From a virus (Duplodnaviria; Caudoviricetes), in the IMG/VR virus record IMGVR_UViG_3300036982_000460, positions 1 to 44,870 of that record: 44,870 bases of DNA. One strand, 5' to 3'. Made by a program: the position numbers and the translations under genes. Shown in pieces: positions 169-24,567 of the stretch. The notes under the pieces are model-generated. The model ran no database searches. It saw nothing but the letters and a program-made list of their open reading frames with translations, and was not told where the DNA came from. Position 1 is the stretch's first letter. Each line of letters opens with the position of its first letter.

Positions 169-194
169 AGGCCCGCATATAGCGGGTCTTTTTT
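169..194 (+). terminator. Rho-independent terminator after ssb
   Basis: Stem AGGCCCGC (169-176), loop ATATA, stem GCGGGTCT (182-189, one G-U pair), followed by a T run to 194. Confidence 0.85.
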
Positions 195-197
195 ATG

Positions 198-203
198 TAT
201 AAT
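198..203 (+). promoter_or_regulatory. Perfect -10 hexamer (TATAAT), probable promoter of the late operon
   Basis: TATAAT lies directly after the terminator and 9 nt before ATG 213, which has no SD. No canonical -35 is present. Confidence 0.5.
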
Positions 204-212
204 GTACTAATC

Positions 213-464
213 ATGGGCGTAACAAAAAGACTTCAAGATCCATCTGGCGGTTTAAACGCTGCTGGTAGAGCATATTATAAACGCACGACGGGGGCTAATT
301 TAAAACCACCCGCACCTAACCCTAAGACTAAGGCAGACGCAGGACGTCGTGCCTCTTTTTGTGCACGTATGTCTGGCATGAAAGCTAAGAACACATCTCC
401 AGCAACAGCACGTGATCCTAATAGCAGGATCAATAAATCATTGAGAGCATGGAACTGTAAATGA
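213..464 (+). CDS. Small basic conserved phage protein (DUF6321-like)
   Basis: Motifs PSGGLNAAGRAYY..., RRASFCARMSGMK and RDPNSRINKSLRAWNC match my recollection of DUF6321 from aquatic phages. Start moved from 195 to ATG 213 because 195 precedes the -10 box. Confidence 0.75.
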   Translation: MGVTKRLQDPSGGLNAAGRAYYKRTTGANLKPPAPNPKTKADAGRRASFCARMSGMKAKNTSPATARDPNSRINKSLRAWNCK

Positions 465-526
465 GAAAAACAATGGGTGCATTGTTAGGTATGGGTGCTG
501 AAATCCAATCGCAAGGAAAGCGTTAA
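461..526 (+). CDS. 21-aa micro-protein consisting only of the QGKR tag (MRKTMGALLGMGAEIQSQGKR)
   Basis: ATG overlaps the upstream stop (ATGA 461-464) and the ORF fills the gap to the next gene. It aligns without gaps to the C-termini of three downstream proteins. It is below the ORF-track size cutoff. Confidence 0.8.
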   Translation: MRKTMGALLGMGAEIQSQGKR

Positions 527-531
527 TATTA

Positions 532-915
532 ATGCCGCAAAATCCACCTCAATTTACTAGCCCCACAGGACGTCCTCAAAAAATATCTATGGCTACGCAA
601 AGTGCAATGGATAAATGGACTAAAGCCGGTATGTCACCACCACAAGTGAAGCCCGGTGAAAGTCAGTATTTTTATACGACAAGAATTAGTAGCTCACTTG
701 TAAATAGACAACGTGGTCGTTACGGCGAAGATGAAACTACAGATCGTATTTTTGATAGAAGAGATGTAGCTACAACACCGACAAAACCTGTACAGTCAGA
801 AGTAAACGCTGTGAAGCCAAAAGGTAAAACAAGTTTTGGAAAATCTATTGGATCTAAAAGTTTTGGTGCGCTTTTAGGATTAGGTACTGCAATACAAGCC
901 CAAGGGAAAAGGTGA
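532..915 (+). CDS. Hypothetical basic protein (127 aa) with C-terminal QGKR tag
   Basis: Ends GSKSFGALLGLGTAIQAQGKR* (tag DNA 850-915). The rest is low-complexity with no recognisable domain. Confidence 0.85.
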   Translation: MPQNPPQFTSPTGRPQKISMATQSAMDKWTKAGMSPPQVKPGESQYFYTTRISSSLVNRQRGRYGEDETTDRIFDRRDVATTPTKPVQSEVNAVKPKGKTSFGKSIGSKSFGALLGLGTAIQAQGKR

Positions 916-919
916 CAAT

Positions 920-1342
920 ATGCCACAAGATACAGATAAGAACTATCGTCCACAAACAGCAAGAGACAAAGAACTTAAGACTTACACAAGTAAAGAAATG
1001 CGAGCAATGGCCGATGGTAAAAACATTCGACCAAAAGTTATACCGGGAACGCAAGATACTGGCAGCGTGTTAGGTGCTTTAGCTCGTGGTCATATTGAAG
1101 CAGGTACAACTGCTAAGGTCGGCATTGCTGGCAGAGATACAGTCAAGGACAATTACAATATTTCTCGCTTGTCTGATTCCCAGACAGCAACCAAATACAC
1201 TGCTGAGCAAACTGCTAAAATGAAATCAGCAATGGCTAAACGTAAATCTTCTGCTCCAAAAAGCCCTGCATCAAAAGGACGCAGGACAATGAGTTCGTTG
1301 TTAGGAATCGGTACAGCAATTTCAACTCAAGGGAAAAGGTAA
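920..1342 (+). CDS. Hypothetical basic protein (140 aa) with C-terminal QGKR tag
   Basis: Ends GRRTMSSLLGIGTAISTQGKR* (tag DNA 1277-1342), preceded by a K/S/A-rich linker. SD-like AAAGGTGA lies upstream. Confidence 0.85.
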   Translation: MPQDTDKNYRPQTARDKELKTYTSKEMRAMADGKNIRPKVIPGTQDTGSVLGALARGHIEAGTTAKVGIAGRDTVKDNYNISRLSDSQTATKYTAEQTAKMKSAMAKRKSSAPKSPASKGRRTMSSLLGIGTAISTQGKR

Positions 1343-1346
1343 AATC

Positions 1347-1664
1347 ATGTTAAAACCAACACCTCCTCGACGAACAATGCCTGCTAAAATGCAAGCTAAC
1401 TATCCAAAGAATGCTCGTAGCACTGGCCGTGCTGTAGGAGCATTAGGCGCAGCTGCTGGAGCAATCGCTGCAACTGGTGTTAGGAATGCACGTGAAGTAA
1501 GCGATGCTGAATATCGTGGATTTGTCAAAGGTAAGACTGCTGGGCGACAAGCTGACAGCAGTGGCCGTATGATAAAGAAAGGTCCTGCAGCTGCAAAAGA
1601 AACTCCTAAAAAGAGCAATGCTCCAGCTAATGCATCGTACTTTACAAAAGCGTTAATGAAGTAA
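1347..1664 (+). CDS. Hypothetical basic K/A-rich protein (105 aa) with internal degenerate tag copy
   Basis: Residues 26-46, TGRAVGALGAAAGAIAATGVR, align in register with the tag. AAGGT SD upstream. Confidence 0.8.
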   Translation: MLKPTPPRRTMPAKMQANYPKNARSTGRAVGALGAAAGAIAATGVRNAREVSDAEYRGFVKGKTAGRQADSSGRMIKKGPAAAKETPKKSNAPANASYFTKALMK

Positions 1665-1674
1665 TAGGTGATAT

Positions 1675-4600
1675 ATGGCATCCGCGTTATACAACATGAT
1701 GGTTGATGATGAAAAAAAGACTGGTGCACCTGCTGGTGGACCAACTCCTGCACCAACCAATGCAGCGCCTGTGCCAGTATCAATTCCACCTGCAACTCCT
1801 CCTGCACCTCAACAACTGAGTCCTGCAGGAGGACCTTCTGGTGAACCCGGTATAAATGAATTACTAGATATTTTATCTGAGGGACGTGGACCTGTTCGTC
1901 CATCTGCTCGTGTAGATCGTCCATCCGCAGTTGGACCAAGGCGTCCATTGGCCCCTCGTCGCACACCACCAAATATGCCAGATTTTGATTGGCGTAGTGA
2001 TGCTGGTGGCACTAAGCCAGCGTTTACTGAGTATGAAGGCGAATCTACTACAGACGCAGTTAGTGGAAAAGTTACATTTACACCTAAATTAGACGCTGCC
2101 GGAAATAAAATTGTTAAACGTGCGGGTCGTGATTTAGATTTTGAGGCAGCTGATCAAGCAGCAGCAGTTGAAGGTCGCGAATTACCAGATACGCAAACAC
2201 GTATTAAAGATGTACGACCAACAGGTCAAGGAGCTGGGCCAAGTCCACGCACATCAGCTGATGACTTGATGGACTCAGCTCGTTATGACGCTGGTGTTGA
2301 ACAAGCCTTTCAAGCTGGAAATATTGGACAGCAAGAACGAGATGCGCAACTAGGTAGTCAGCAAAGAGCTACGTTTGGTCAAGGATTTACCAGCGAAGTT
2401 CCAATGAGTCTTGAAGAACAGGAGATTGCTGGGTTACGAGAAAAACGTGACTTCTCTAAATCTAAATTCATAGACACAGATCCTTTACAACAACCACCGG
2501 CTAACATAAGAGAAACTTTACGCGCAGATACACTTATTCGCGACACCATAAAAAAAGGCGGTAATGCAACTAATCCATTTAGTGTAGTGCAAACAGTTTT
2601 TGGTCAATTACAAAATGACGTACGACGCGGAGAAACTAAGGCCGTTAATCTTGAACGTGGATTAATTAGCGAAGTTGCAAGCATTTGGGGTCAAGGCGAA
2701 ACATTCCGTGAAGACCATCCATTTACCAAAATTGCACGTGAGTCTTACGGTAAAACCCTTGATGAAGTTGTAGCTGAATATAAACGAACAACGGGCCAAG
2801 ATTTATTTACACCAAAGTTATTAACTGGCTTACAACGTCAGATGGCAACAAAAGCAACGCAATACCGTGCTGATTCCGAAGCGATTAAAGGCAGTGTTGG
2901 ATATAGCGTATTAACTAATGCTATTGAAGTTGGAAACAACGAACGATTTAACGCAAGCGCAAAGTCGCGTGTAGCAAAAGGCGCGATTGCATATCTTGCA
3001 TCTATTCCTTTAAATGATGAAGCTGATGTAGCAGACGCAAAAAATTATTTCAATATGTCTTTATACGGTGATCCGTCAATGAAGTATTACCAAGAAGGTA
3101 TTGAAAAGTTTTATGCTGATGATCCAGTTCTCGGAGTAGTTTTTAAAACCGGTGCTGCTGGTGGCACTGCACGTGCTGCTGTAAGTATGGATAAAGTACG
3201 TGGAGCTACAGCGGAAGTATTTAAAACTGCTATAGATGATGCAAATTATGGCTTTGTAAATGGAACTATTGCATCAGATGAAGACGGTGTAGTGGTGCCT
3301 AGGACTGGACGTCAAGCGCAAGTTCGTTTGATGAATGATTTTACGTTTCCTTTTTATAAGGCAATGTATGCCGGTGATCCAATTGAAGGTTTTAAAGCAT
3401 TAAATGGAACTTCATTTGGTAGGTACTTTGCTAACAATTTAGCGTTTAACTTACAAGTATTGGACACAGACAATACTGTTAAACAGATTTTTGAATCTGA
3501 AGATAATGAAGCAAAAACAGCAGTAATGAATGCAATTACTGCACCATTTGGTATTAAACGCGCTATGCGCAACTTGTTTACTTTTGATATTGCAGGGCAA
3601 GAAGATCAATTTGCTATTGATGTACCTAAAATACAAGACGCTATGAAATCTGGCGATATGTTATTGGCTAAACAGATGATGGCTCCATATGCAAGTACGG
3701 ATCAGTTAGATATTTTATTTGGTGAAGACGGATATGTTGAAGGACAAGGCAAGCAACGTGAGTTGAAACTTGTTGACCTTGAAGAAATGCGTGGAGTTGG
3801 TGGTTCCAGAAAACAAAGGCTTGATGCATATTTAGGTAAAAAAGAATCATATGCTGCTGCATCTGAAAAAATGGAAGCATCTGTATTAAAGATGGCCCCT
3901 GATCAATTAATAGCTAGATTAACTGGTGCATTTAAGATTGATCAAACACTACTTGGTGGTTATACAGGTGAAACACGAAAAGCGTATAACATGGGTTATA
4001 TTGCAGATACAGATGTAACAGGCACTCAGAAAGCTGCGTTAGCAGATATTGTTACATATCTATCTCCTACGCGAGATGGATCAATGTCCATTGCTGATGA
4101 TCCAATTTTTACACAAACACTGACTACAGTAGACGATGCAATTAGTAAATTAAATTTACAAATAAATCAAGGGACATTATCTGGATATCAAGAAGAAGCG
4201 GCTAAGTCGTTACTTAAAGAATTGAAAAGCACACGTCAACAGGCGTTGTCTAACTTAGATGACTTTGTTGCAGCAGGTGTAGGGCGTAAGCATTTATTTG
4301 CATTAACACCTGATGGTCCAGATTACTCACGGCCAATTTCTGCAGCAGGTTCTGCTAGTCGCGTTGCGCAGGTTACTGATATGCTTGGGGCTTGGTTAAC
4401 AGGCACTAAAGGTGTTGATGTAAACCGTTATTTTAAATCAACTACAGAGACAACACAGCGAGCAAGTAATCGTGTTTTGGTTACTCCTATTGATCGCAAC
4501 GGTAATGCAATTCCATCGCAGATTGCTGTATCAGTAAAAAAAGATGCAGATGGATTTGTCCAATATCCTGTTTATGAAAAAGAAGGAACGTCATGGGTTC

Positions 4601-5967
4601 CAGCAAAAGATATTTTTGGAAGACCAATAACATCTAGTGCTCCGTTAAATAAAGCTCAACAGGCAACCGCTTCATTATTTGGAAAAGCGGCTAATGATAC
4701 AGCTTCTGGAAATCGTGTAAACGATGATTATAAGCGACAACAAGTAAATGATATACGTGTCCATTTACAGAACATTATTGAACCATCAGGTAAAGATGCA
4801 GCTGAGCGCCGTAAGTATTTAATTGAAGAAATTGGCATTTTTGCTGACACGCGCAGCAGGATTGAAAATGCTGAAGTGATGAAATTTCTACAGAAAATGG
4901 ATCCACAGCAAGGACGCAAACTATTAGGTTACTTAGAAGCATACGGGCAGAGCGAATCATTAAAGCCAGACGCCAACGTGAATTGGGCTATGAATGCAAC
5001 TAGTACTCGTGGGCGATCATTTGGCACAGATGATAAAGCAATTGGTGAGATTGAAAAAGAATCTCGTTTTAATGCGGTTGATAACCATAGGACTACAGTC
5101 TTTACTTTAGCAAGCCAATCCAAGAACATTATTCGCACGTATGCTGATGAATTGATGGATGGGCGTGGCATTGCAGATCCGTCTACACGCACAGCAGCAG
5201 CTGATCAAGTAATGAAGAGCCTCATCAAATCATTACCAATGCTGGGTGCAAACAACATGCAAACTGCACAGGTAAGAGACTATATGAGAGATTATATTGA
5301 TGCATATCTATCTGATGACGCAGATCAGATTAAAGTTGTGAATACTCAGTTGCGCGATTTTGTTGAGAATTTTGAAGTTACTCCAGAAGCGGCAGATAAA
5401 GCACAACAAGAATTAATACGTGGTTCTAAGTTAAATCTGCGAAAACCAGCACAACAAGAATCTGATGCGCGAACACCAGCGCAAATTGTAGCTGATGCTA
5501 AAGCAAAAAATGACGCAGCAAGAAGTCAAAACAGATCACAAGCAAAATACTATGCAACTGAATTCTTCCCGCAATTAGGTTGGATTTATGCAGATGGTAC
5601 AGAAGCATCTGTAAATCAATTTAGGACAATGGCTCAAACTGCACAGAAGCGTGGGAATTCAAGAGGTTTAGACCCACGTCGAAAAAACATGGAAGGCATC
5701 ACTATAAAGCAGCCAACTGCTAATGATATTGCTATTGCAAAGAAGGATAAGCCTGATTACAAAAGAGTCCCTGGAGGAACTAAGATTCGACAGCAGCCTC
5801 GTAATGTTGAATCAACTCAAAGAACTATAAGTCAACCTAAGCCAAACATTAACAAGACACCAGCTGTTCTCCTCAAGGGGAAACAGAAACCATCAGGTGG
5901 AACATTACGTACGCTCGGAACATTGGCAACTTTAGGTGGAGCAATTAGCACTCAAGGCAAGAGGTAA
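1675..5967 (+). CDS. Large hypothetical protein (1430 aa) with C-terminal QGKR tag; possible internal virion protein
   Basis: AGGTGA SD. Pro-rich N-terminus and basic C-terminal linker ending TLRTLGTLATLGGAISTQGKR* (tag DNA 5902-5967). No catalytic motif recognised, so the function is inferred. Confidence 0.85.
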   Translation: MASALYNMMVDDEKKTGAPAGGPTPAPTNAAPVPVSIPPATPPAPQQLSPAGGPSGEPGINELLDILSEGRGPVRPSARVDRPSAVGPRRPLAPRRTPPNMPDFDWRSDAGGTKPAFTEYEGESTTDAVSGKVTFTPKLDAAGNKIVKRAGRDLDFEAADQAAAVEGRELPDTQTRIKDVRPTGQGAGPSPRTSADDLMDSARYDAGVEQAFQAGNIGQQERDAQLGSQQRATFGQGFTSEVPMSLEEQEIAGLREKRDFSKSKFIDTDPLQQPPANIRETLRADTLIRDTIKKGGNATNPFSVVQTVFGQLQNDVRRGETKAVNLERGLISEVASIWGQGETFREDHPFTKIARESYGKTLDEVVAEYKRTTGQDLFTPKLLTGLQRQMATKATQYRADSEAIKGSVGYSVLTNAIEVGNNERFNASAKSRVAKGAIAYLASIPLNDEADVADAKNYFNMSLYGDPSMKYYQEGIEKFYADDPVLGVVFKTGAAGGTARAAVSMDKVRGATAEVFKTAIDDANYGFVNGTIASDEDGVVVPRTGRQAQVRLMNDFTFPFYKAMYAGDPIEGFKALNGTSFGRYFANNLAFNLQVLDTDNTVKQIFESEDNEAKTAVMNAITAPFGIKRAMRNLFTFDIAGQEDQFAIDVPKIQDAMKSGDMLLAKQMMAPYASTDQLDILFGEDGYVEGQGKQRELKLVDLEEMRGVGGSRKQRLDAYLGKKESYAAASEKMEASVLKMAPDQLIARLTGAFKIDQTLLGGYTGETRKAYNMGYIADTDVTGTQKAALADIVTYLSPTRDGSMSIADDPIFTQTLTTVDDAISKLNLQINQGTLSGYQEEAAKSLLKELKSTRQQALSNLDDFVAAGVGRKHLFALTPDGPDYSRPISAAGSASRVAQVTDMLGAWLTGTKGVDVNRYFKSTTETTQRASNRVLVTPIDRNGNAIPSQIAVSVKKDADGFVQYPVYEKEGTSWVPAKDIFGRPITSSAPLNKAQQATASLFGKAANDTASGNRVNDDYKRQQVNDIRVHLQNIIEPSGKDAAERRKYLIEEIGIFADTRSRIENAEVMKFLQKMDPQQGRKLLGYLEAYGQSESLKPDANVNWAMNATSTRGRSFGTDDKAIGEIEKESRFNAVDNHRTTVFTLASQSKNIIRTYADELMDGRGIADPSTRTAAADQVMKSLIKSLPMLGANNMQTAQVRDYMRDYIDAYLSDDADQIKVVNTQLRDFVENFEVTPEAADKAQQELIRGSKLNLRKPAQQESDARTPAQIVADAKAKNDAARSQNRSQAKYYATEFFPQLGWIYADGTEASVNQFRTMAQTAQKRGNSRGLDPRRKNMEGITIKQPTANDIAIAKKDKPDYKRVPGGTKIRQQPRNVESTQRTISQPKPNINKTPAVLLKGKQKPSGGTLRTLGTLATLGGAISTQGKR

Positions 5968-5971
5968 TAAC

Positions 5972-7054
5972 GTGCAAAAAAAAGGCATACCTGAAAAACG
6001 AGCATTAAAACCAAGGCAAGATAGATCCTTGGAGGCAAAAGCAGTAGATCAATTATTACAAATGCCAGCATTCACTACGTTATTGCGTGGTGTACAAGCA
6101 AAAAAATCTACAGATATGATTGCTGGTAGTGGGATTGATGTTACAGGTGCTGAATTAAGTAAGGGCGCAGGATTAAAAAAAGGTGTTGGTAGAGTGCTTG
6201 CGGAAGGTCCCATGCAACACGATTTAGCATTAGGTGCATTAAGGACATTATCACCTAATGCATCTCCGTTATATAGAACAAATAAAGTTGGAGAAAGCCT
6301 AACACTTGCTGGTGGTAATGCTCTTAAAGATGCAGCCATTGATTTAGCCGTAGGTAAATATTTACCAAAAGTTCCGGGCATGAAAAATCTTGGTGAAGAA
6401 GTTGTAGAAAAAATAACAAAGGCAGTGCCATATGCAAATTTTGCTACTGATCAAAAATTCTACGAACAACTAATGGGTCTAGCTGGATATTTACAAAAAA
6501 CAAGGCCTGAATTAGATGGTAAATCTATATATCAAAGCATACCGGGATTTGAAGACTACCTTACAGATCTAGCTAAGAAAAACATTGCTGGTAAAAGCAG
6601 TGTTAAAAATAGCAAATTATTAACATCCGTAAATGAGCATCTTGGGACTAAGCCATTTGACGATGAAGCTGGTTTAGCTTTAATGAAATTGATTGCGCCA
6701 GATTATGCACCACCAGTAGAGTCTGACAATGAAGGCAGAATGATGCCTAAGTTTGATCAATATCAATATAAACCAGCAATGCAAGGTGACTATTACACTG
6801 AAGAATTGGGTTTAACTGAAAAACAAGAAAAAGGGTGGGATATTTTAAAGTTGTTAAAAGCATATGAATTCCATAAAGATGATTTAGCTAAAACAGCACC
6901 TATGCAATATATATCTGAGTTGTTTCAAGATTTATCATTAAAAAATGCCATTAAAGTAAATAACAAATATCTTGGCCCCTCACCATCACCAAAAAATATG
7001 TCTCAGATGGGATCTCAAGGAATCAACACTCGTACAACTCCACAGTTACCATGA
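5972..7054 (+). CDS. Hypothetical protein (~360 aa)
   Basis: Start reassigned to GTG 5972, which follows GAGGT (5961-5965) and avoids overlap with the previous gene. The stop overlaps the terS start (ATGA). Confidence 0.8.
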   Translation: MQKKGIPEKRALKPRQDRSLEAKAVDQLLQMPAFTTLLRGVQAKKSTDMIAGSGIDVTGAELSKGAGLKKGVGRVLAEGPMQHDLALGALRTLSPNASPLYRTNKVGESLTLAGGNALKDAAIDLAVGKYLPKVPGMKNLGEEVVEKITKAVPYANFATDQKFYEQLMGLAGYLQKTRPELDGKSIYQSIPGFEDYLTDLAKKNIAGKSSVKNSKLLTSVNEHLGTKPFDDEAGLALMKLIAPDYAPPVESDNEGRMMPKFDQYQYKPAMQGDYYTEELGLTEKQEKGWDILKLLKAYEFHKDDLAKTAPMQYISELFQDLSLKNAIKVNNKYLGPSPSPKNMSQMGSQGINTRTTPQLP

Positions 7055-7827
7055 TAATAAATGAACATGTTCGCGTAATGAAAAATGGTGGAAAAGTTCC
7101 ACTGTGTCAATCTGCCAACCCAGATGGGCAACTATGCAAAAATCTTGCAATTAAAGATAGGGATTATTGTAAATACCATGGTGGTAAAGCATTAATGGGA
7201 CCAGATAACCCAGCATTTAAAACAGGATTATGGTCTAAGCAACGACGTCGTTTTGCGTCTGTAGCACCAAAACTATTACAACGTATAGAAGAATTGCGTG
7301 ATGACCCAGAGTTGTTTAGCCTCAAGGATGACGCCGCTTATTTAACAGCATTGATGGATATTAGGGCAGAGGCTGCAAGTAATGGAATAAGCGTAGAGCA
7401 TTATGAAGAAATAAAAGACCAGATGGCGGTATGTAAGGCAACGCAAGGAACAGAAGAATTTCCTAAAGCCTTTAAAGCATTAGACAGGATGGTCAGTCAA
7501 GGCATTGATATATATCGCGCCAGCCAAGATGTTGTTAGTTTGATTGAGAAAAGAACTGACATCGTTGAAGCTGAAGCTCGCATGTTACATACAAAGGCGT
7601 ATACACTTGAGGTTGATCAAGCATATAGTCTAGCGATGCAAATTTTAAAAGTTGTTAAAGATTGTGTGCATGATGCAAGTGAACTACAAGCAATTAAAGC
7701 TGGATTTGGAAAATTGTTAAAGCAGTATCAAAATGAAGACATACAGGACGCAGAAATAATCAATGAAGAATCAAGTATCGACGAGGGCAACTCCGCGAGC
7801 ACTGAAGAAGTTTATACGTCCAACTAA
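7051..7827 (+). CDS. terS: Terminase small subunit, with N-terminal HGGxSTG-like Cys/His domain
   Basis: CQSANPDGQLCKNLAIKDRDYCKYHGGK..GPDNPAFKTGLWS motif, helical C-terminal half, and position directly before terL. Confidence 0.75.
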   Translation: MIINEHVRVMKNGGKVPLCQSANPDGQLCKNLAIKDRDYCKYHGGKALMGPDNPAFKTGLWSKQRRRFASVAPKLLQRIEELRDDPELFSLKDDAAYLTALMDIRAEAASNGISVEHYEEIKDQMAVCKATQGTEEFPKAFKALDRMVSQGIDIYRASQDVVSLIEKRTDIVEAEARMLHTKAYTLEVDQAYSLAMQILKVVKDCVHDASELQAIKAGFGKLLKQYQNEDIQDAEIINEESSIDEGNSASTEEVYTSN

Positions 7828-9508
7828 ACCTTTAGCAGTAGCTTTATTGGAAGCTCTGCAAGATGAACTTGGTAATGCTATTGAGTTAGGTGATTTTGAT
7901 AGTGGATTAGCAACGGCGTTGCCCGGAGCTGATATGGATTATGCTGACTGGTTGCGTGTTTATGCACCACATTCTGCATCATCTAAATTAGGCGAACATC
8001 ATCATAGGGCATGGAAATGGGCTGAAGATATTACGCCCGGTAAATTTGTCCCAGCATTAATTGAATGTTGGTTTCGTGGTGGTGGCAAATCAACCACGAT
8101 GGAATTAATTGTTAGCAGATTAGCAGTTAAAGCAACTCGCAGGTTTGCTGTATATGTATGCGCCACGCAAGATATGGCTGATAGGCACGTGCAGGATATT
8201 GCAACAGCTATGGAGCGGTGTGGCATAGAACGCGCTGTAAATAAGTATGGATTTTCTAAGGGCTGGAGTGCTAGTAAACTTCGTACTGCTAATGGGTTTA
8301 ATGTACTTGCTTTTGGCCTTGACACTGGTGCTCGTGGTGTTAAGCTTGACCATCTTAGACCTGACATGATTATTCTTGACGACATTGACGAGTTAGATGA
8401 TTCGGTCAATGCTGTCGATAAGAAAATAAGAACTATTACTCAGACGATTCTTCCTGCTAAGAGTACTGACTGTGCAGTTGTTTTTGTACAGAATAGAATT
8501 CATGCAAACTCAGTAATGTCACAGGTGTTAAGTGGCGATTTAGATATGCTTCAAGATCGTATACAGTCACCAATTATTCCAGCCGTACAGGATCTTGAGT
8601 ACACAACATACGAGCGTAATGATGGACGAATGGGTTATCGGATTACGGCAGGTACTCCAACGTGGCAACACAAAACTCTTGAAGTTTGTCAGCATGAAAT
8701 TGACACATATGGACTGCTTTCATTTTTGCGTGAGTGTCAACATGAAGTGGGTGTTGGTGGATTATTCTTTCCTGACTTCCGTGAATACAACACAGATGGA
8801 AAACCATGGCATGTTGTAGATCATGTTGAAATACAACCTTGGTGGAGAATGTGGGCTAGTCACGACTTTGGTACGGGAGCACCAGCATGCTTCCTCTTAT
8901 ACGCCAGTGATGATAGAGAAAACATATACGTCATTGGAGAGATGTATGAAGCTGGATTAGTAAGTAGTAAACAAGCTGAAAAATGTTTGGAATTACTTGA
9001 GAGTAAACAATTAGGATCTCCAGCAAATATTAAAGTACGTGATGGTATTTGGAATACTAAGTTAGAAGCAATTGCATTTGACTGGGCTAATACATTTCCG
9101 CCAATGAAGGCAGAAGAACGTATTGGTGAATATCCAGTTGAAATTTGGTGGGAACGTGGATTGCCAGCAGTGAGAGCGGTTAAAGATAGAAAAGCTGGAT
9201 GGCGCAGAGTCAAAGAGTGGTTAAGTGCAACTGATATTGTTGAAGGCCAACCAAAACCAAAGTTGCAAATTGTACGTGGTGCTTGTCCAAATTTAATTAA
9301 ACAGATATCTGCCACAATGGCTCATCCTCGTGATCCTGAAGATATTGACAGTGGGACTAAAAATGATCACGCTATTGATAGTTTTCGCTATGGTGTTATG
9401 TGGCGTGAGTATCCTGTAAAGTGTCCTGAGATAGACGACAAAATGCCATCTAACGAAAAACATATACCAAGTTGGTTAAAGAAAAAGGATAATAGTAGAT
9501 GGTTATAA
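7763..9508 (+). CDS. terL: Terminase large subunit
   Basis: Walker A FRGGGKST, Walker B IILDDID, RNase H-like nuclease motifs WASHDFG and NDHAIDSFRYG. An alternative start at ATG 7934 (GGAG at 7925) is possible. Confidence 0.95.
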   Translation: MKNQVSTRATPRALKKFIRPTKPLAVALLEALQDELGNAIELGDFDSGLATALPGADMDYADWLRVYAPHSASSKLGEHHHRAWKWAEDITPGKFVPALIECWFRGGGKSTTMELIVSRLAVKATRRFAVYVCATQDMADRHVQDIATAMERCGIERAVNKYGFSKGWSASKLRTANGFNVLAFGLDTGARGVKLDHLRPDMIILDDIDELDDSVNAVDKKIRTITQTILPAKSTDCAVVFVQNRIHANSVMSQVLSGDLDMLQDRIQSPIIPAVQDLEYTTYERNDGRMGYRITAGTPTWQHKTLEVCQHEIDTYGLLSFLRECQHEVGVGGLFFPDFREYNTDGKPWHVVDHVEIQPWWRMWASHDFGTGAPACFLLYASDDRENIYVIGEMYEAGLVSSKQAEKCLELLESKQLGSPANIKVRDGIWNTKLEAIAFDWANTFPPMKAEERIGEYPVEIWWERGLPAVRAVKDRKAGWRRVKEWLSATDIVEGQPKPKLQIVRGACPNLIKQISATMAHPRDPEDIDSGTKNDHAIDSFRYGVMWREYPVKCPEIDDKMPSNEKHIPSWLKKKDNSRWL

Positions 9509-9657
9509 GTATCTTCTTTGTTATATGTTGCTCGTTAGTTACGCTGAGTGTATTAGCGCAGACTGTATTTATATATGGAATAGTGAATAACCTACGGTTA
9601 ATAAGAGAAGAGCGACTATTAGTGCAGCGAGTTGTTTCCAGTGAAAGGTGGATTTAA
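9499..9657 (+). CDS. Small single-pass membrane protein (52 aa; not in ORF track)
   Basis: MVISIFFVICCSLVTLSVLAQTVFIYGIVNNLRLIREERLLVQRVVSSERWI*. SD AAAGGA lies upstream and the ORF fills the terL-portal gap exactly. Confidence 0.7.
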   Translation: MVISIFFVICCSLVTLSVLAQTVFIYGIVNNLRLIREERLLVQRVVSSERWI

Positions 9658-9659
9658 AA

Positions 9660-12008
9660 ATGTCCGTTGATATAAATAACCTCATGCGTGGAACAATGAG
9701 TAATCGATTGCTCCAGCAGCAACAACCAAAAGTATCTGCATTTGCTAAACCATCAGCAGCAGGTACACCCGGAAGTTTTGATTTAAAAAATACGTCTAAA
9801 GAAAATCCAGACAACTTAAACATTGATCTTGCGCCAAAGGACTGGCGAGTTATACCAAAAGATCAGCCAGATGAAGCAAAGAAGATTACTGGTTTTGTAA
9901 AACAACAGTTCGACTTGTCGTATAGATCTAGACAAGAAATGGAACTTGAATGGGTTATGGCAACTGCGTTCTTTGAGGGACGTCAGTGGTTTAGGATTAA
10001 TAGTCAAGCTAGGAATTTAGAAAGCCTCCAGCACGAAGACGAACCTAACCGGTACATGACAGTGAATAAAATGCGTCCATTAATTGATGGCGTTGTAGGT
10101 AAGTTAACTCAGTGCTCACCTGACTCTAGTGCTGTACCAATTAGTAATAACCCAGTAGACTTAATGGCAGCGGATGAAGCTAATTACATTGTTAATCACT
10201 ATAATCGCAAGTTTGATCGAGAAACACAAACAAAAGAACGTGTCCGTTGGGCTTGTGTCTGCGGAACATCATTTCTAAAAATATTCTGGGACGCTAGTCA
10301 AGAGCAAGTTGTCCCACAGATGGATTCTTCTGGACAAGAAGTCATCGGTCATACCTCAATGAAGGTTGGAGATGTTATTGAACAAATCCTTCCGGCCTTT
10401 GATGTGTATTTTGATCCATCTGCAAAACGTGATTCTGATATCCGTTGGATGATTCACGCAATGGTTAAACCACTATCGTGGTTTGTGGATAAATACGGAG
10501 ATGATGGTAAGTTAGTCAAGCCTGATGGACAGAATGGTTCTAATGCTGGATATGTTGATACGTATTTAGATGGAACAAATGGTAACGGGCGTGGCTGGGT
10601 ACCACCATCACCAGTAAACCTAGGTAACACTGATACAAAGAAGCAAGCAGCAATTGTATACGAATATTGGGAAAAACCTACAGCGTTATATCCAAGTGGT
10701 CGTTACATTGTAAGTACAAACAGTTGTTTGCTTTATGCTGGTCCTTGGCCATACAAGAAGAAAGATTCATTCCCATTTATTCCTCTGCGATGGCAACCAC
10801 GTAGTGGTACACCATACGGTTATAGTCTTGGATGGGATTTGTGTTCACTGCAACTTACTTACAACCGAGTCTATTCACGACTTATTGAGCAGTTTGAAAA
10901 TCAAAAAGACTATATCCTTGTAGAGAACTTAAGTGGTGTAGGTGCAGATGCATACGACAACACTAGTGATGGAGTTGATGATAAGAATAGAATCTATCGT
11001 CGTATTAATTACAAGAGAGGTTCTCATCCACCTTCCATCCAACGTGCTCCGGGCATTGGTTCTGATTTATTCCCATTGCTTCAGATGCTAGAAAAAGACA
11101 TGATGGATGTTGCTGGATTACATGATGTAAGTCAAGGGCAAGCCAGTGCAGGTACTCCTGCTGAATCTGTTCGGTTATTGCAGCGATCTGATAACACACA
11201 GCATTCATTTATAAGAGCCGACATTGAGATCAGCGCTTCTAAGATTAAAGAGTGGGAAGTATCTTTAATCGAGCAGTTTGCCATTGTTCCATTTGTTGGA
11301 AATATTCAAGGCAAGATGTTGCCACAAGATCAAATTAGGCAGGGCGTAATGCGTTTTGATGCATTGCGATCTGGCGGTCAATACAGAATTGTTTATATTC
11401 CGGGATCATCTATGGATGATAGCCCTGATCAGAAGCTGCAGAAATTAGCGGCTATGCGACAGATGGGTGTATTTGGTGACCCGATGGATCCTGCGACAAA
11501 TAGATTATTTATTGAGCTTGCAAACATACCTAACGCATCACGTATTTACGAACACCTTGATCAGCAAGCACAGAAGATGCAAGCAGCACAAGAGCAGCAA
11601 GCCCAAATGATGCAACAGCAAACAATGATGGAAGCACAGGCGAAGCAAGAGCAGTTTAACCCAGAAGTTGAACAAGCTAAAATGCAATTAGAAGTGCAAA
11701 AGCAACAAGCAATTATTCAAGCAAAACTTGAAGCAGATATTTCTCTTGCTGCAGCAAAGGCTGGTATTGAAGCTCAGCAAAATGAGGATTACGCAGTAAC
11801 TGAACTTGGTAAAGAACAAGCTATGCCAAGTAACGAAATGAGTATGATGCCACCTATGGGCGGAGGTGCGCCACCTATGAGTGGTGGCATGCCTTCAATG
11901 GGCGGTATGCCTCCGATGAGTGGTATGCCACCTATGGGTGGACAGTCAGCTCAGCCAATGTTGCCACAATCGGGTGAGCAGCAGCCAGATATTACTGGCA
12001 TGTTTTAA
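9660..12008 (+). CDS. Portal protein (P22-like, long Gln-rich C-terminal helix)
   Basis: Position after terL. Motifs FFEGRQW, VNKMRPLIDGVVG, ACVCGTSFLKIFWD and DMMDVAGLHDVSQG, plus a Q/A-rich coiled tail. Start set at ATG 9660 after SD AAGGTGG. Confidence 0.9.
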   Translation: MSVDINNLMRGTMSNRLLQQQQPKVSAFAKPSAAGTPGSFDLKNTSKENPDNLNIDLAPKDWRVIPKDQPDEAKKITGFVKQQFDLSYRSRQEMELEWVMATAFFEGRQWFRINSQARNLESLQHEDEPNRYMTVNKMRPLIDGVVGKLTQCSPDSSAVPISNNPVDLMAADEANYIVNHYNRKFDRETQTKERVRWACVCGTSFLKIFWDASQEQVVPQMDSSGQEVIGHTSMKVGDVIEQILPAFDVYFDPSAKRDSDIRWMIHAMVKPLSWFVDKYGDDGKLVKPDGQNGSNAGYVDTYLDGTNGNGRGWVPPSPVNLGNTDTKKQAAIVYEYWEKPTALYPSGRYIVSTNSCLLYAGPWPYKKKDSFPFIPLRWQPRSGTPYGYSLGWDLCSLQLTYNRVYSRLIEQFENQKDYILVENLSGVGADAYDNTSDGVDDKNRIYRRINYKRGSHPPSIQRAPGIGSDLFPLLQMLEKDMMDVAGLHDVSQGQASAGTPAESVRLLQRSDNTQHSFIRADIEISASKIKEWEVSLIEQFAIVPFVGNIQGKMLPQDQIRQGVMRFDALRSGGQYRIVYIPGSSMDDSPDQKLQKLAAMRQMGVFGDPMDPATNRLFIELANIPNASRIYEHLDQQAQKMQAAQEQQAQMMQQQTMMEAQAKQEQFNPEVEQAKMQLEVQKQQAIIQAKLEADISLAAAKAGIEAQQNEDYAVTELGKEQAMPSNEMSMMPPMGGGAPPMSGGMPSMGGMPPMSGMPPMGGQSAQPMLPQSGEQQPDITGMF
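11847..11942 (+). repeat. Five degenerate MPPM(S/G)G peptide repeats in the portal tail
   Basis: MPPMGGGAPPMSGGMPSMGGMPPMSGMPPMGG. Confidence 0.8.
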
Positions 12009-12029: not shown

Positions 12030-12890
12030 ATGTCCGAAGAGATGGTGACACGAACCGCTGATTCGCCAGCAGCGGCACCGGGCAATGTTGGTGGTGCAAT
12101 GTTGGATTTCGTTAGGGAGTCGTCTGGCTCTAACGATAGTGGAGCAGGGACGTTAAATCAATCCACTAGTAATAACGAAGCACCAACACAAACAGATAGT
12201 GTTTTTGACCCAAATTCTATTCAAGAACGAGTTAAGAAACAACTATTAGATAGTGCGTTACCGGATAAACAACCGGCAAACGTACCATATGATCGCTTCA
12301 AAGAAGTAAACGATGAAGCAAAACAGCTCCGAGCAACGCAAGAAGCGTACTCAAAGTGGGCTGATGTTATTCGGCAATTTGAGGAAAGCGGATTTTCTTC
12401 TGCGGCTGATGTGCAAAAGGCATATCAAGAACAACAGCAGCAAAGTCTAGAAACTCAAATTCGCGAGCGATGGAATGAACAGGTCCAGTCTAATTACATG
12501 GACCCAGAACTAGCTCGTGTACAAGCTGAATCTGAGATCCAGAAGTATCGTTACGACCAAGTAGTTGGTCAAATGAATACGTATATGGTTACTCAACAAC
12601 GTGAACAGGCATTGCAGCAATTTCCATATGCATCGCGAGCGCAAGATGTCATGGACAGTTTAATCCAACAGGGTATGAATCCTATGGATGCTGCATCAGC
12701 TGTACATCGTCAAGTTAGTGGTCTTGTTGAATCACTTGTCCCGCAATTAATTGACATGGTAACAAATCAGCAAGGTACACCAACACCTATTGGAAGTGGA
12801 GACTCTGCTAACGCAATGGTTCCACCGCAACAACAATCTAATCGACAATCCGGTTTCAGTAGCATTAGTCGGCTATTAGGAATCAGGTAG
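12030..12890 (+). CDS. Capsid scaffolding protein
   Basis: Located between portal and MCP. Disordered acidic N-terminus, VPYDRFKEVNDEAK motif common in phage scaffolds, coiled-coil middle, and a short terminal helix FSSISRLLGIR. Confidence 0.8.
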   Translation: MSEEMVTRTADSPAAAPGNVGGAMLDFVRESSGSNDSGAGTLNQSTSNNEAPTQTDSVFDPNSIQERVKKQLLDSALPDKQPANVPYDRFKEVNDEAKQLRATQEAYSKWADVIRQFEESGFSSAADVQKAYQEQQQQSLETQIRERWNEQVQSNYMDPELARVQAESEIQKYRYDQVVGQMNTYMVTQQREQALQQFPYASRAQDVMDSLIQQGMNPMDAASAVHRQVSGLVESLVPQLIDMVTNQQGTPTPIGSGDSANAMVPPQQQSNRQSGFSSISRLLGIR

Positions 12891-12899
12891 GAGTAAACA

Positions 12900-13913
12900 A
12901 TGGCTATCGATTTTAACGGTGCTTTAACACTCGCAGATCAGGCTGTCCTCTCGAATGATCCTCTTGTAAAAGAGATCACCATGTCTATGCACCAGACATG
13001 GAATGCAATCAAGGATATCCCTTTCTACACATCGCAGTCTTTACGGCAAGTTGGCGTTCGTTATACGAATGAAGCTGGCACAATCCCAATGCCAACGTGG
13101 TCCACAATTAACGGTGAACCAAACGCGGTTAAGGGTAAGCCAAAGTCGTACGAAGAGCAGATGTATCTTATTCGTAATAAGATTACTGTTGACTCTCGTC
13201 TCCTTGAGCAACCAAACAATATTATTGATCCAGTCGAAGCGCAGGTCAAAATCTTTTTAGAGGGTTTTGCATACGACTTTAATGACAAGTTCATTAATAA
13301 TGACCCTACATCTCCTTTAGCTACCAATAGCCCTGATTGTTTTCCGGGATTAAAGTACCGCTTAGAGAATCGTGCACAGTACGATATTCCAATGGACTGT
13401 CTTGTTGCTCCGGCTGCTACTGTTGCTACATTAGATGTATCGTCTACGTATAATGCTTCTGAGGCTAACGGTACAATTTCTGCACTTCAGGAATTGTTTG
13501 ACAACCTTAATTCACCAGATGGAAACGGCATTGTCCTTTACATGAATGAAGAAACAAAGCGTCGCTTTGAATTTATTATTCGTGCACTAGGAGCTGGTAC
13601 CGGTTTCAATACTGATGTCGATGCATTTGATCGATCTGTCGATACGTACAAGGGTGCTAAGATCCGTACCGTTGGACGTAAGGTTGATGGAACAACTCCT
13701 GTTATTACTGCACCAGCAAACTTCCAAGACGTATATGCTGTACGTTATGGAACTGGTTATGTACAGGGATGGCAGTCTGGACCATTTAAGCCTGAGTACT
13801 TAGGTAAGTCTAAGGAAAACGGAATTATGCACAATGTGTTGTTTGACTGGGGCATGGGTCTCTGGATGCCAAACACTCGTTCTATTGGTCGCTTACGTTT
13901 AGCAACTAACTAA
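12900..13913 (+). CDS. Major capsid protein (HK97 fold, Bordetella phage BPP-1-like)
   Basis: 337 aa with a strong GGAG SD, following the scaffold. Motifs LTLAD..., IKDIPF, PTWSTIN, VDSRL, FLEGF and FPGLKYR resemble the BPP-1 MCP as I recall it. Confidence 0.88.
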   Translation: MAIDFNGALTLADQAVLSNDPLVKEITMSMHQTWNAIKDIPFYTSQSLRQVGVRYTNEAGTIPMPTWSTINGEPNAVKGKPKSYEEQMYLIRNKITVDSRLLEQPNNIIDPVEAQVKIFLEGFAYDFNDKFINNDPTSPLATNSPDCFPGLKYRLENRAQYDIPMDCLVAPAATVATLDVSSTYNASEANGTISALQELFDNLNSPDGNGIVLYMNEETKRRFEFIIRALGAGTGFNTDVDAFDRSVDTYKGAKIRTVGRKVDGTTPVITAPANFQDVYAVRYGTGYVQGWQSGPFKPEYLGKSKENGIMHNVLFDWGMGLWMPNTRSIGRLRLATN

Positions 13914-22827: not shown

Positions 22828-24567
22828 ATGTCAACACCACTCGGCGCTGGCTATATAACAGTAGCCTTTATTGCTGCAAGACTTGCTGCACCATCTGTCG
22901 GAGGCACAGCTGGAACAGCAAGTCTTAATGGTTTTGCGGGATTAACCGCGCTGCCTTCAATTCAACGCAGTGCAAATTTAATTGGTGTTAGTAGAGTAGA
23001 TGCTAACTTAGCTTTTACTAGGACATCTGACGTTCGTGGCATTGCTACAGTTACGTCATCACCATCTTTTGTACGCACATCTGACGTTCGTGGCATTGCT
23101 ACAGTTACGTCATCACCATCTTTTGTACGCACATCTGACGTTCGTGGCATTGCTACAGTTACGTCATCACCATCTTTTGTACGCACATCTGACGTTACTG
23201 CACGTGCATCTCTGGTAGCTAATGTTTCTTTTGTACGCACATCGGATGTTCGTGGTGTTGCTACAGTTACATCATTATTAGTTTCCACGGGAGCATCTGA
23301 CGTAAGTGCCCGTGCATCTCTGGTAGCTGATGTTTCTTTTGTACGTACATCGGATGTAACAGGGTTAGCTAATGTAACTAGTGTATATAGCAGAGTAGGC
23401 TCATTATCTGTTTTTGCATCAGCTACCATAAATGCAAATGTTAGTTTTGTACGGCAGTCTGATGTTTTTGGTAAATCTGCTATAACGTCAACTGTTTCTT
23501 TTGTTCGTGGTGGATCGGTTACTGGTTTTGGCAACTTACTTGCTACGCCAACATATAGCGTAATATCTCAGATAAATGGTCGAGCTAATGTAGAATCCAC
23601 AGCTACAGGATCTGCAGCGTCAACAGTAAGTGCGTATGCTAGATTAACCGCAGACATAACATATTCAATTACTAGCTCAGTAAATGGACGCGCAGATTTA
23701 TCTGCAACTGGAGTTACAACAACTAATGTTGTTAGCACTTCTAATATAAATGGATTTGCAACTTTAACTGCTTTACGTTCGACACAAATACAGTCAAGTA
23801 TTACTGCGTATGCTAGATTAACCGCAGACATAACGTATTCAATTATAAGTTCAATAAATGGACGTGCAGATTTATCTGCAACTGGAGTTACGGCGACTAA
23901 TGTTGTTAGTGCGTCTAATGTAAATGGATTTGCAACTTTAACTTCTATTCGATCCAGTCAATTACAGGCATCACTTATAGGTCTTGCTGCATTAACAGCA
24001 CTTCCAGACACGCAAGGTACATCTTCAATTCGAGGCATTGCGACAGTTACAGCATTGCCATCTGCACAACTGCAATCATCTATAGTTGGCATTGCTTCGA
24101 CAAATGCAAGTGCAATAATAGCAAATCCTACGTACGTAAATAGTGCAATTGTAGGTACTAGTAATGTAACAGCCAACGTATCATTCGTTAGAACATCTTC
24201 TATTCGTGGTATTGCCACAATAATTTCGTATTCAATATCGCCAACTACACCAGCTCAACCGCTATTTGCAAATATACGTGGAATTGCTAATGTAATTGGT
24301 GATGGGTACATTCCAAACATTTGTGAGTGCCCAGAATGGTTAAATCTTCTTCCTTCGACTTGCAATTATGTTAATGGAAGTTTGTTTAGTGCATCAGGAT
24401 ATGATCTTCCGTATACATTGCCAATTTTTAGATTGCATGAAAGTGTACAATCATTTACTTACGGAAATTTAATATCTGGTGTATATACTATTCCGCAGTC
24501 AATCAGTTGCAGTTCTACGCAACCTGCAACACTGAGTAAGCAGTTTACTCGTAAGGGGTGTTTGTAA
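22828..24567 (+). CDS. Repetitive beta-strand fibre-like protein (579 aa)
   Basis: More than 20 degenerate 18-22-aa repeats (S.h.G.A.hT...) and a Cys-containing C-terminal segment. Confidence 0.65.
   Translation: MSTPLGAGYITVAFIAARLAAPSVGGTAGTASLNGFAGLTALPSIQRSANLIGVSRVDANLAFTRTSDVRGIATVTSSPSFVRTSDVRGIATVTSSPSFVRTSDVRGIATVTSSPSFVRTSDVTARASLVANVSFVRTSDVRGVATVTSLLVSTGASDVSARASLVADVSFVRTSDVTGLANVTSVYSRVGSLSVFASATINANVSFVRQSDVFGKSAITSTVSFVRGGSVTGFGNLLATPTYSVISQINGRANVESTATGSAASTVSAYARLTADITYSITSSVNGRADLSATGVTTTNVVSTSNINGFATLTALRSTQIQSSITAYARLTADITYSIISSINGRADLSATGVTATNVVSASNVNGFATLTSIRSSQLQASLIGLAALTALPDTQGTSSIRGIATVTALPSAQLQSSIVGIASTNASAIIANPTYVNSAIVGTSNVTANVSFVRTSSIRGIATIISYSISPTTPAQPLFANIRGIANVIGDGYIPNICECPEWLNLLPSTCNYVNGSLFSASGYDLPYTLPIFRLHESVQSFTYGNLISGVYTIPQSISCSSTQPATLSKQFTRKGCL
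23023..23196 (+). repeat. Perfect 54-bp tandem repeat, three copies plus 12 bp
   Basis: Unit acatctgacgttcgtggcattgctacagttacgtcatcaccatcttttgtacgc at 23023, 23077 and 23131, encoding TSDVRGIATVTSSPSFVR. Confidence 0.95.
23631..23978 (+). repeat. Diverged 174-bp tandem duplication
   Basis: tgcgtatgctagattaaccgcagacataac starts at both 23631 and 23805, giving two copies of a 58-aa unit. Confidence 0.9.

Follow-up and report, generated by a model that had tools for sequence, protein, structure and literature searches.

The gene cluster upstream of the terminase

The virus record IMGVR_UViG_3300036982_000460 comprises 44,870 bases and is 68% complete; this whole stretch of DNA is referred to here as the window. 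It carries a head module with a terminase, a P22-like portal and a GP7-type capsid protein, and SU10-type adaptors are also present. Between a DUF6321 gene and the terminase small subunit gene (terS) lies a cluster of genes, four of which end in a similar 21-residue tail, or tag, that finishes in QGKR (Table 1). The tag is two joined things: a core that resembles the C-terminus of the presumed scaffolding protein, and the QGKR end. The protein bodies ahead of the tags are 0, 106, 119 and 1409 amino acids (aa) long, and the codons used for GKR differ among the four, all as an earlier note on this DNA had reported.

The six possible pairs of tags have 9-13 of 21 residues in common when anchored at the C-terminus, whereas 459 other pairs of C-termini from 31 window genes have at most 5 of 21. 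Pairs within the window served as the null for this comparison; random pairs over all loci were spoiled by orthologues. The resemblance of the four tags is far above chance. The tagged bodies are unrelated to each other (best E-value 1.3 in BLASTP among them), and the three longer proteins have basic ends, with net charges of +7, +10 and +8 over their last 45 residues. The genes lie upstream of terS and the large subunit gene terL, with another gene intervening before terS, and the DUF6321 gene comes first in the cluster. The stop codon of the latter overlaps the start of the 21-aa micro-open reading frame (micro-ORF) in the sequence ATGA, giving a coupled start.

Table 1. Features of the cluster and of the head genes in the window.
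Feature	Position	Strand	Details
Hairpin and T run resembling an intrinsic terminator	169..199	+	Divides upstream gene from cluster; consensus match only
DUF6321 gene, opens the cluster	195..464	+	PF19846, E 5.5e-24
21-aa micro-ORF, all tag	461..526	+	Scaffold-like core MGALLGM at 473-493; profile score 10.1
127-aa basic protein, isoelectric point (pI) 10.4	532..915	+	Tag 850-915; core FGALLGL at 862-882; profile score 12.4
140-aa basic protein, pI 10.3	920..1342	+	Tag 1277-1342; core MSSLLGI at 1289-1309; profile score 17.6
105-aa basic protein ending YFTKALMK	1347..1664	+	No score with scaffold profile
1430-aa mainly helical protein, no known family	1675..5967	+	Tail 5902-5967
Further gene between the 1430-aa gene and terS	5972-7054	+	GTG start at 5972
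Terminase small (weak match) and large subunits	7051..9508	+	phrog_10899, E 0.003; phrog_38, E 8.6e-29
P22-like portal protein	9648..12008	+	PF16510, E 1e-29
Presumed scaffolding protein, 286 aa, pI 4.6	12030..12890	+	ISRLLGI at 12864-12884; profile score 20.8
Major capsid protein, GP7 type	12900..13913	+	PF20911, E 1.1e-6; phrog_212, E 1.5e-26

A scaffold-like core in the tags

The acidic protein encoded between the portal and capsid genes ends in ISRLLGIR, SGFSSISRLLGIR. It is called a scaffold here because of its position and its acidic charge, and it is presumably one. Positions 5-11 of three window tags (genes 461, 532 and 920) follow the pattern hydrophobic-small-x-L-L-G-hydrophobic, which is the C-terminal motif of this scaffold. 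The tail of the 1430-aa protein, the giant protein of the cluster, contains GxAISTQGKR without the LLG core. Every one of the genes that immediately precede the capsid gene (46 of 46) has the motif x-x-x-[LM]-[LM]-G-[IM] within its final 25 residues; together they hold 15 distinct 7-mers, and in an alignment of 42 scaffold sequences LLGI is conserved after a variable P/Q-rich linker. A fixed profile of these 7-mers gave at least 12 bits in 45 of 45 further distinct scaffold sequences, taken from loci fetched via the capsid gene. Four more distant scaffolds have diverged tails (scores of -2.4 to 4.0), and three of their loci extend as far as the terminase and show no such cluster. A tail-like pattern, hydrophobic-x-x-L-[LM]-G, also occurs in portal proteins, at 14 of 62 distinct N-termini (for example L033 2151-4337, L034 11874-14033 and L124 6052-8238), not including the portal of the window.

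The distribution of the motif was examined in 80 related loci found through the terminase. The profile was built from the 15 scaffold 7-mers only, to avoid circularity, and was scanned over mechanically called, de-duplicated ORFs with 20 shuffles as the null, a main mark of 12 bits and a second mark of 10 bits. The scan covered loci with a terS match, and its cluster count does not include the 183 ORFs that precede terS where DUF6321 is missing; a looser pattern was seen in 14 of these. The 12-bit mark was reached by 26 of 173 ORFs located between DUF6321 and terS (shuffle mean 0.65, maximum 2), compared with 2 of 649 downstream ORFs (shuffle 3.15) and 4 of 447 ORFs upstream of DUF6321 (shuffle 0.5). 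At least one match at 10 bits was present in 36 of the 40 loci with a whole cluster. The same fixed profile was applied to later loci, which were fetched via the capsid gene and mostly end inside the giant gene; it matched 5 of 153 pre-terminase ORFs (shuffle 0.3) and 2 of 641 downstream ORFs (shuffle 2.1). Matches to a profile made from scaffolds alone are enriched before the terminase in relatives.

Forty of the 43 cluster matches at 10 bits and six pattern matches make up a set of 46 carriers, from which the micro-ORF and two internal matches in giant proteins were left out. With the motif masked, the carriers fall into 17 groups, or about 15 unrelated bodies across the clade after three alike are merged; this number is a better measure than locus counts. 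In relatives it is the middle of the 21-mer that is retained. The carrier motif reads hydrophobic-[SAGT]-x-[LM]-[LM]-G-[IM], and it can stand first (MLSKLMGI before a DUF6496 domain), inside the protein or last, so that the tag can no longer be described as strictly C-terminal. Many carriers are only 31-90 aa long and consist of the motif, Lys/Met-rich stretches and little more. All 44 carriers below 250 aa (44/44) are net basic. Pfam and PHROGs searches with 16 carriers named almost none, giving DUF6496 and a weak DUF6425. Judged by eye, the 105-aa protein at 1347..1664 may be a degenerate fifth carrier; relatives end in PITKALGIKK and MSKAMGVGKKK.

Several similar sequences were noticed beside this set. 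A 136-aa protein encoded among replication genes, outside the cluster (L096 6737-7147, minus strand), ends RPRMSNLMGMKK and is an apparent further carrier. A family of small proteins (L008 8162-8470, L035 5937-6206, L073 7789-8061) consists of three or four repeats ending E-H (K-E-H-x-L-K), with a scaffold-like motif within one repeat. Large cluster proteins, also those with unrelated bodies, have a conserved helix-like start, such as MASALYNMM, MASLLSSL or MASFRSLLLG (1675-1710 in the window, and relatives).

A possible role in head assembly

The favoured reading, to which a probability of about 0.58 can be given, is that the scaffold tail is a coat-binding element, that copies of it take scaffold sites and that the basic carriers would stay with the DNA as the acidic scaffold leaves. 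A copy of the seven-residue motif would dock on the scaffold's site at the inner procapsid wall, with the capsid protein encoded at 12900-13913 as its probable partner, and the basic passengers would be enclosed in the course of head assembly. In the virion their part would likely be DNA charge neutralisation or co-ejection. The earlier note had proposed that the 21-mer loads proteins into the capsid. Capsid loading does gain support, though from a segment that was not picked out there, residues 5-11 of three tags, which match the scaffold; the QGKR 21-mer is not the conserved unit.

A number of observations weigh against this reading. The presumed scaffold had no family match in Pfam and PHROGs scans. 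Four of the 40 whole clusters have zero matches at 10 bits, and L124 has the scaffold motif but none in the 8.3 kb upstream by the profile. The loci are related, and the counts are therefore not independent. Single matches near 10-13 can be chance: in the window, terS reaches 10.7 and a protein of the ejection region (29093) 12.9. The micro-ORF, at 10.1, is below the 12-bit mark. The tail of the 1430-aa protein gives 0.1 bits (p 0.25), and only 2 of 25 tails of large proteins score as much as 10 bits, with 7 of 25 better than shuffles at p<0.05. Mimics do not co-vary detectably with their own scaffolds (1.80 vs 1.69 over 22 distinct pairs, p 0.24). Tags are not generally better conserved than bodies: in comparison with L096/L095, non-synonymous codons number 6/21 in the tag and 22/119 in the body of gene 920, and 5/21 and 27/379 in the giant gene, gene 532 having 1/21 and 30/106. 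Finally, basic proteins could be packaged by charge alone.

The copies might instead bind the same capsid site as assembly modulators, which would tune nucleation, size or scaffold release and leave together with the scaffold. Such a protein is known in CpmB (PMC5644958), and many carriers, of 31-90 aa, have little beyond the motif and Lys/Met-rich stretches. The window has also retained the 21-aa ORF, which is motif only and whose start is coupled, and the portal N-termini with a similar pattern (14/62) would fit as well. The small carriers are all net basic and the scaffold is acidic, however, which suits retention with DNA. Further, the micro-ORF has Glu where X2, X3 and X7 have Ala and so resembles a decaying copy, and carriers are gained and lost between close strains. 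Modulation is considered unlikely.

A co-fold of two copies of the capsid protein with the 32-residue tail of 920-1342 (alignments of 149 rows for the capsid protein and 11 for the tail) gave scores of 0.03 and 0.11 against a mark of 0.32, run without controls, and counts neither for nor against docking. For the giant protein, a model of the 955-residue core is mostly helical, with a predicted local distance difference test (pLDDT) value of 75 and a predicted template modelling score (pTM) of 0.39, and had no match in the PDB. The giant protein has one uncharacterised phage homologue, and an Atlas search with it returned unnamed clusters only, at 0.80 or less.

A Gly-rich amphipathic helix could also serve another partner, such as the portal, further molecules of the scaffold or, during ejection or lysis, the host membrane. 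The hydrophobic moments of all four tags are about 1.1; the large-protein tails remain Gly/Leu-rich with a basic end even though the exact motif is lost; and the scaffold hooks of P22 contact the portal too (PMC12005531). The mean Kyte-Doolittle hydropathy of the tags over 19 residues is 0.49 or less, which is too low for a membrane anchor. A generic membrane helix would also not need the LLG-hydrophobic core of the scaffold. Another partner is somewhat less probable than a modulating role for the set as a whole, and it suits the 1430-aa protein better than it does the small carriers.

Origin of the QGKR ending

QGKR is invariant in the four tags of the window and in three tags of L095 and L096, two loci on one contig (87-91% identical). 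When the second half of the tag was searched for as a DNA pattern, there was one match in viral contigs (L081), judged to be chance, and there were 39 loci in metagenomes, of which only L091 (98% identical), L095 and L096 match window proteins. A protein search with the tail, covering candidates of 77-245 aa, returned the query itself only, and searches for close loci with genes 532 and 1675 as queries returned none. In other relatives the cluster is the same and the endings differ: L006 has RKSMGALLGIAGVINASAKRR and ...SSKRR, L003 has VYATLLGMGAIANRRTQGR and L007 has GFATLLGIGKALYETQKKDN, and endings in relatives include SAKRR, RRTQGR, QRRGGN and TQKKDN. These three loci are without QGKR despite capsid proteins about 90% identical to that of the window. 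By the endings compared, QGKR is confined to a narrow clade and does not appear to be the address.

The ending overlaps the translation signal of the next gene. In genes 532, 920 and 1675 the last codon is AGG and is followed by the stop codon, a 4-nucleotide (nt) gap and the next start, which places AGGT at Shine-Dalgarno distance (AGG-TGA at 910-915, AGG-TAA at 1337-1342, and GAGGT at 5961-5965 before the GTG at 5972). AGG makes up 79 of 726 other Arg codons (11%) and is the last codon in three of the four window tags. Across the loci, a Shine-Dalgarno-like 4-mer lies in the last 18 nt of 278/463 tightly followed genes, compared with 38/242 genes with gaps of 9-40 nt, and pairs of G, K or R in the last five residues show the same difference (175/463 and 28/242). 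The micro-ORF tag ends in CGT rather than AGG, and the Shine-Dalgarno sequence therefore does not explain its Arg.

The junctions are also alike as DNA. The tags of two unrelated L006 genes are identical at 57 of 63 nt, whereas each is identical to its counterparts in the window and L096 at 34-42 of 63 nt. Both L006 and L096 contain a pair of identical junctions (26 and 27 nt), and the window has a 13-nt one. Behind the stop codon of the L006 giant gene sits the same element, the protein ending in SQGTQR. For the Gly, the two small window genes use GGG and the two L096 genes GGA. Met-Pro starts are found in 41 of 144 cluster genes against 10 of 285 downstream (MPQ in 14 and 0, among them genes 532 and 920 of the window and genes of L006 and L096), which extends the junction repeat. 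No promoter-like or terminator-like site was found on the + strand at the junctions. The QGKR ending has probably arisen incidentally, as the ribosome-binding site of the next gene was copied between neighbouring genes. The differing codons had been taken as an argument against DNA copying; this holds for the core but not for the tag end, where the junction has been homogenised as DNA. The unit copied by recombination between neighbouring genes would be the tag end, Shine-Dalgarno sequence, stop codon, 4-nt spacer and ATG CC, in which the AAA/AAG-AGG-stop codons double as the Shine-Dalgarno sequence of the next gene. Such copying would keep tails alike within a genome while genes drop in and out. 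As a separate observation, L124 26-1910 encodes three tandem paralogues that start MAQTGK and have near-identical 30-residue C-termini, a further homogenised tail at the same cluster position.

These results bear on two further explanations. The tags may be functionless passengers of a repeated, Shine-Dalgarno-bearing junction that is copied between genes. For the last four codons and the spacer copying is evident, and in two of three genes the tags change no more slowly than the bodies. The core, however, is found at N-termini and inside proteins, away from junctions, and in the scaffold 11 kb away; tag pairs of the window use different codons for 3-7 of their 9-13 shared residues; and changes in the core keep to the pattern of the scaffold. 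It is improbable that whole tags are passengers. In the proposal of the earlier note, a free C-terminal QGKR is itself recognised, as a capsid address, degron or export signal. Its invariance in seven tags and the CGT codon of the micro-ORF would suit this, but the ending is missing in L003, L006 and L007, neither the DNA pattern nor the tail search gave an unrelated carrier, and the Shine-Dalgarno overlap largely explains it, which makes a QGKR signal very improbable.

The micro-ORF and strain variation

Close strains differ in the genes that they carry. Contigs from runs X2 and X3 (two studies, 95-99% alike) match the window up to 478 and resume at 467, with 527 extra bases between two copies of 467-478, which are the KTMG codons of the micro-ORF; both are without gene 920-1342. 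X7 also resumes at 467. The 21-aa ORF had been counted as a tagged gene, but its short form occurs only in run X1, which may be the source of this DNA, and three others differ upstream of 467. At the place of the micro-ORF, L096 has a gene for a 67-aa Lys-rich protein that starts MRKTMGQMMGI. On these alignments the micro-ORF is likely a deletion product in which the start of the 67-aa Lys-rich gene was fused at the 467-478 repeat to the tag of a lost gene, and it is probably what remains after one such loss at a junction. In the simplest reading, the deletion ran from the motif at the start of one gene to the motif in the tail of the next. The L096 gene and spacer account for 206 nt, and the remainder, 321 nt of the 527, is in frame; by these lengths the lost gene would have had about 128 codons. 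Residue 14 of the micro-ORF is Glu, while the other tags and X2, X3 and X7 have Ala (A>C at 501), which hints at decay.

The pre-terminase region may more generally be a plug-and-play array for capsid loading, with a unit made up of cargo, scaffold-mimic helix, Shine-Dalgarno sequence with stop codon, and ATG CC. One stretch of DNA would then be packaging address, translation signal of the next gene and a recombination site at which strains swap cargo genes, up to a 1400-residue protein, and the motif-only 21-residue peptide might compete freely with the scaffold. This extension is tentative and rather doubtful.

The capsid protein, the host and other features of the window

The capsid protein of the window is 23-25% identical to the nearest cultured capsid proteins, and its sequence had no match in the PDB. 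A first model was poor (pLDDT 58, residues 1-125 below 50); a structure search with it gave weak matches, none at E<=0.001, to HK97-fold capsids and encapsulins. A contig that bears the title of an Armatimonadia genome has a capsid gene 62% identical to that of the window, and relatives occur in 8 of 301 genomes of Armatimonadota searched, with no other phylum as control and with contigs that may be mis-binned. Armatimonadota are a host lead only.

A 4485-aa ORF at 30868-44325, the usual place of ejection proteins, had no Pfam match, and a 579-aa protein at 22828-24567 has tandem repeats of the SFVRTSDVRGIATVTSSP type. DUF6321 occurs in 510 phage records, mainly cyanophages and pelagiphages, and is also the C-terminal domain in several far longer PHROG families. 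In P-SCSP1u it lies directly behind the capsid gene. It was not named in the available text of the open-licence papers and preprints found, nor in that of the P-SCSP1u proteomics. DUF6321 might be another portable head module, and a much more widespread one.

Relation to known systems and significance

An encapsulin cargo-loading peptide resembles the tags in that a short terminal peptide follows a flexible linker and the shell is of the HK97 type. Encapsulin shells are without portal, terminase and tail, whereas portal, terminase and SU10-type adaptors are present here. Sorting signals of the PEP-CTERM/GlyGly-CTERM type have a transmembrane helix before a basic tail, together with an N-terminal signal peptide; the tags have no such helix (hydropathy of 0.49 or less over 19 residues), and the N-termini of the tagged proteins are polar by eye. 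The capsid targeting sequence of T4 is N-terminal. The motif described here is C-terminal in genes 532 and 920 and N-terminal or internal in other families. T4 internal proteins and DarB of P1 have portable capsid targeting sequences (PMC9024508), and there as here a short portable peptide would send unrelated proteins into the head; unlike in those systems, the head is of the podovirus type and the tag equals the scaffold tail. No protease family match that would indicate a prohead protease was found among the window ORFs, in a record that is 68% complete.

The nearest likeness is found in 80alpha, where the C-terminus of the scaffold binds coat and CpmB of SaPI1 competes for the same site through a homologous tail (PMC5644958). 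In both cases a non-scaffold protein has a copy of the scaffold's short C-terminal amphipathic motif, which in the window holds for genes 461, 532 and 920 and not for 1675. In the account cited, 80alpha and CpmB share a helix-and-hook with RIIK, whereas the motif here is a different one. CpmB belongs to a satellite and redirects the capsid size of its helper; the carriers stand in the phage's own terminase, portal and capsid operon, and nothing seen points to a satellite or to a redirected capsid size. In contrast to CpmB as described there, some 15 unrelated basic bodies have the motif at either end.

In P22, the scaffold C-terminus binds coat at the inner capsid wall, in an electrostatic contact of Arg293 and Lys296 with acidic N-arm residues (PMC12005531). 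The window has a P22-like portal, and its scaffold tail would likewise be the coat-binding part. Attaching cargo to a truncated P22 scaffold that keeps the C-terminal part suffices for packaging (PMC9962691); those fusions, as reported, are man-made and use 66-163 residues, whereas a natural hydrophobic core of seven residues is reused here. The closest analogy at the DNA level is with the PeSL cassettes of T4-type phages, short repeats at the borders of genes that are associated with unknown genes being gained and lost (PMC2839356). A repeated element also borders variable genes here, and gene loss has occurred at such a junction. The PeSL element, as presented there, is a promoter with a stem-loop, while the element here is the coding end of a gene with a Shine-Dalgarno sequence and a start codon, identical over 13-27 nt.

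The principle is already known from CpmB, T4 and engineered P22. Searches of open-licence papers and preprints, supplements excluded, gave no description of the scaffold-like motif, of its occurrence on about 15 bodies or of its link to a Shine-Dalgarno junction that recombines. For those who search for motifs, the QGKR ending is a caution that shared basic C-termini in tight phage operons can stem from the ribosome-binding site of the next gene. How podoviruses choose non-structural passengers of the head is largely open. If a seven-residue copy of the scaffold tail is sufficient, comparing the last residues of the scaffold with the genome would predict which small pre-terminase genes encode virion passengers, and the motif would provide a loading tag of minimal size for engineered capsids, much shorter than the fragments of the P22 scaffold now used.

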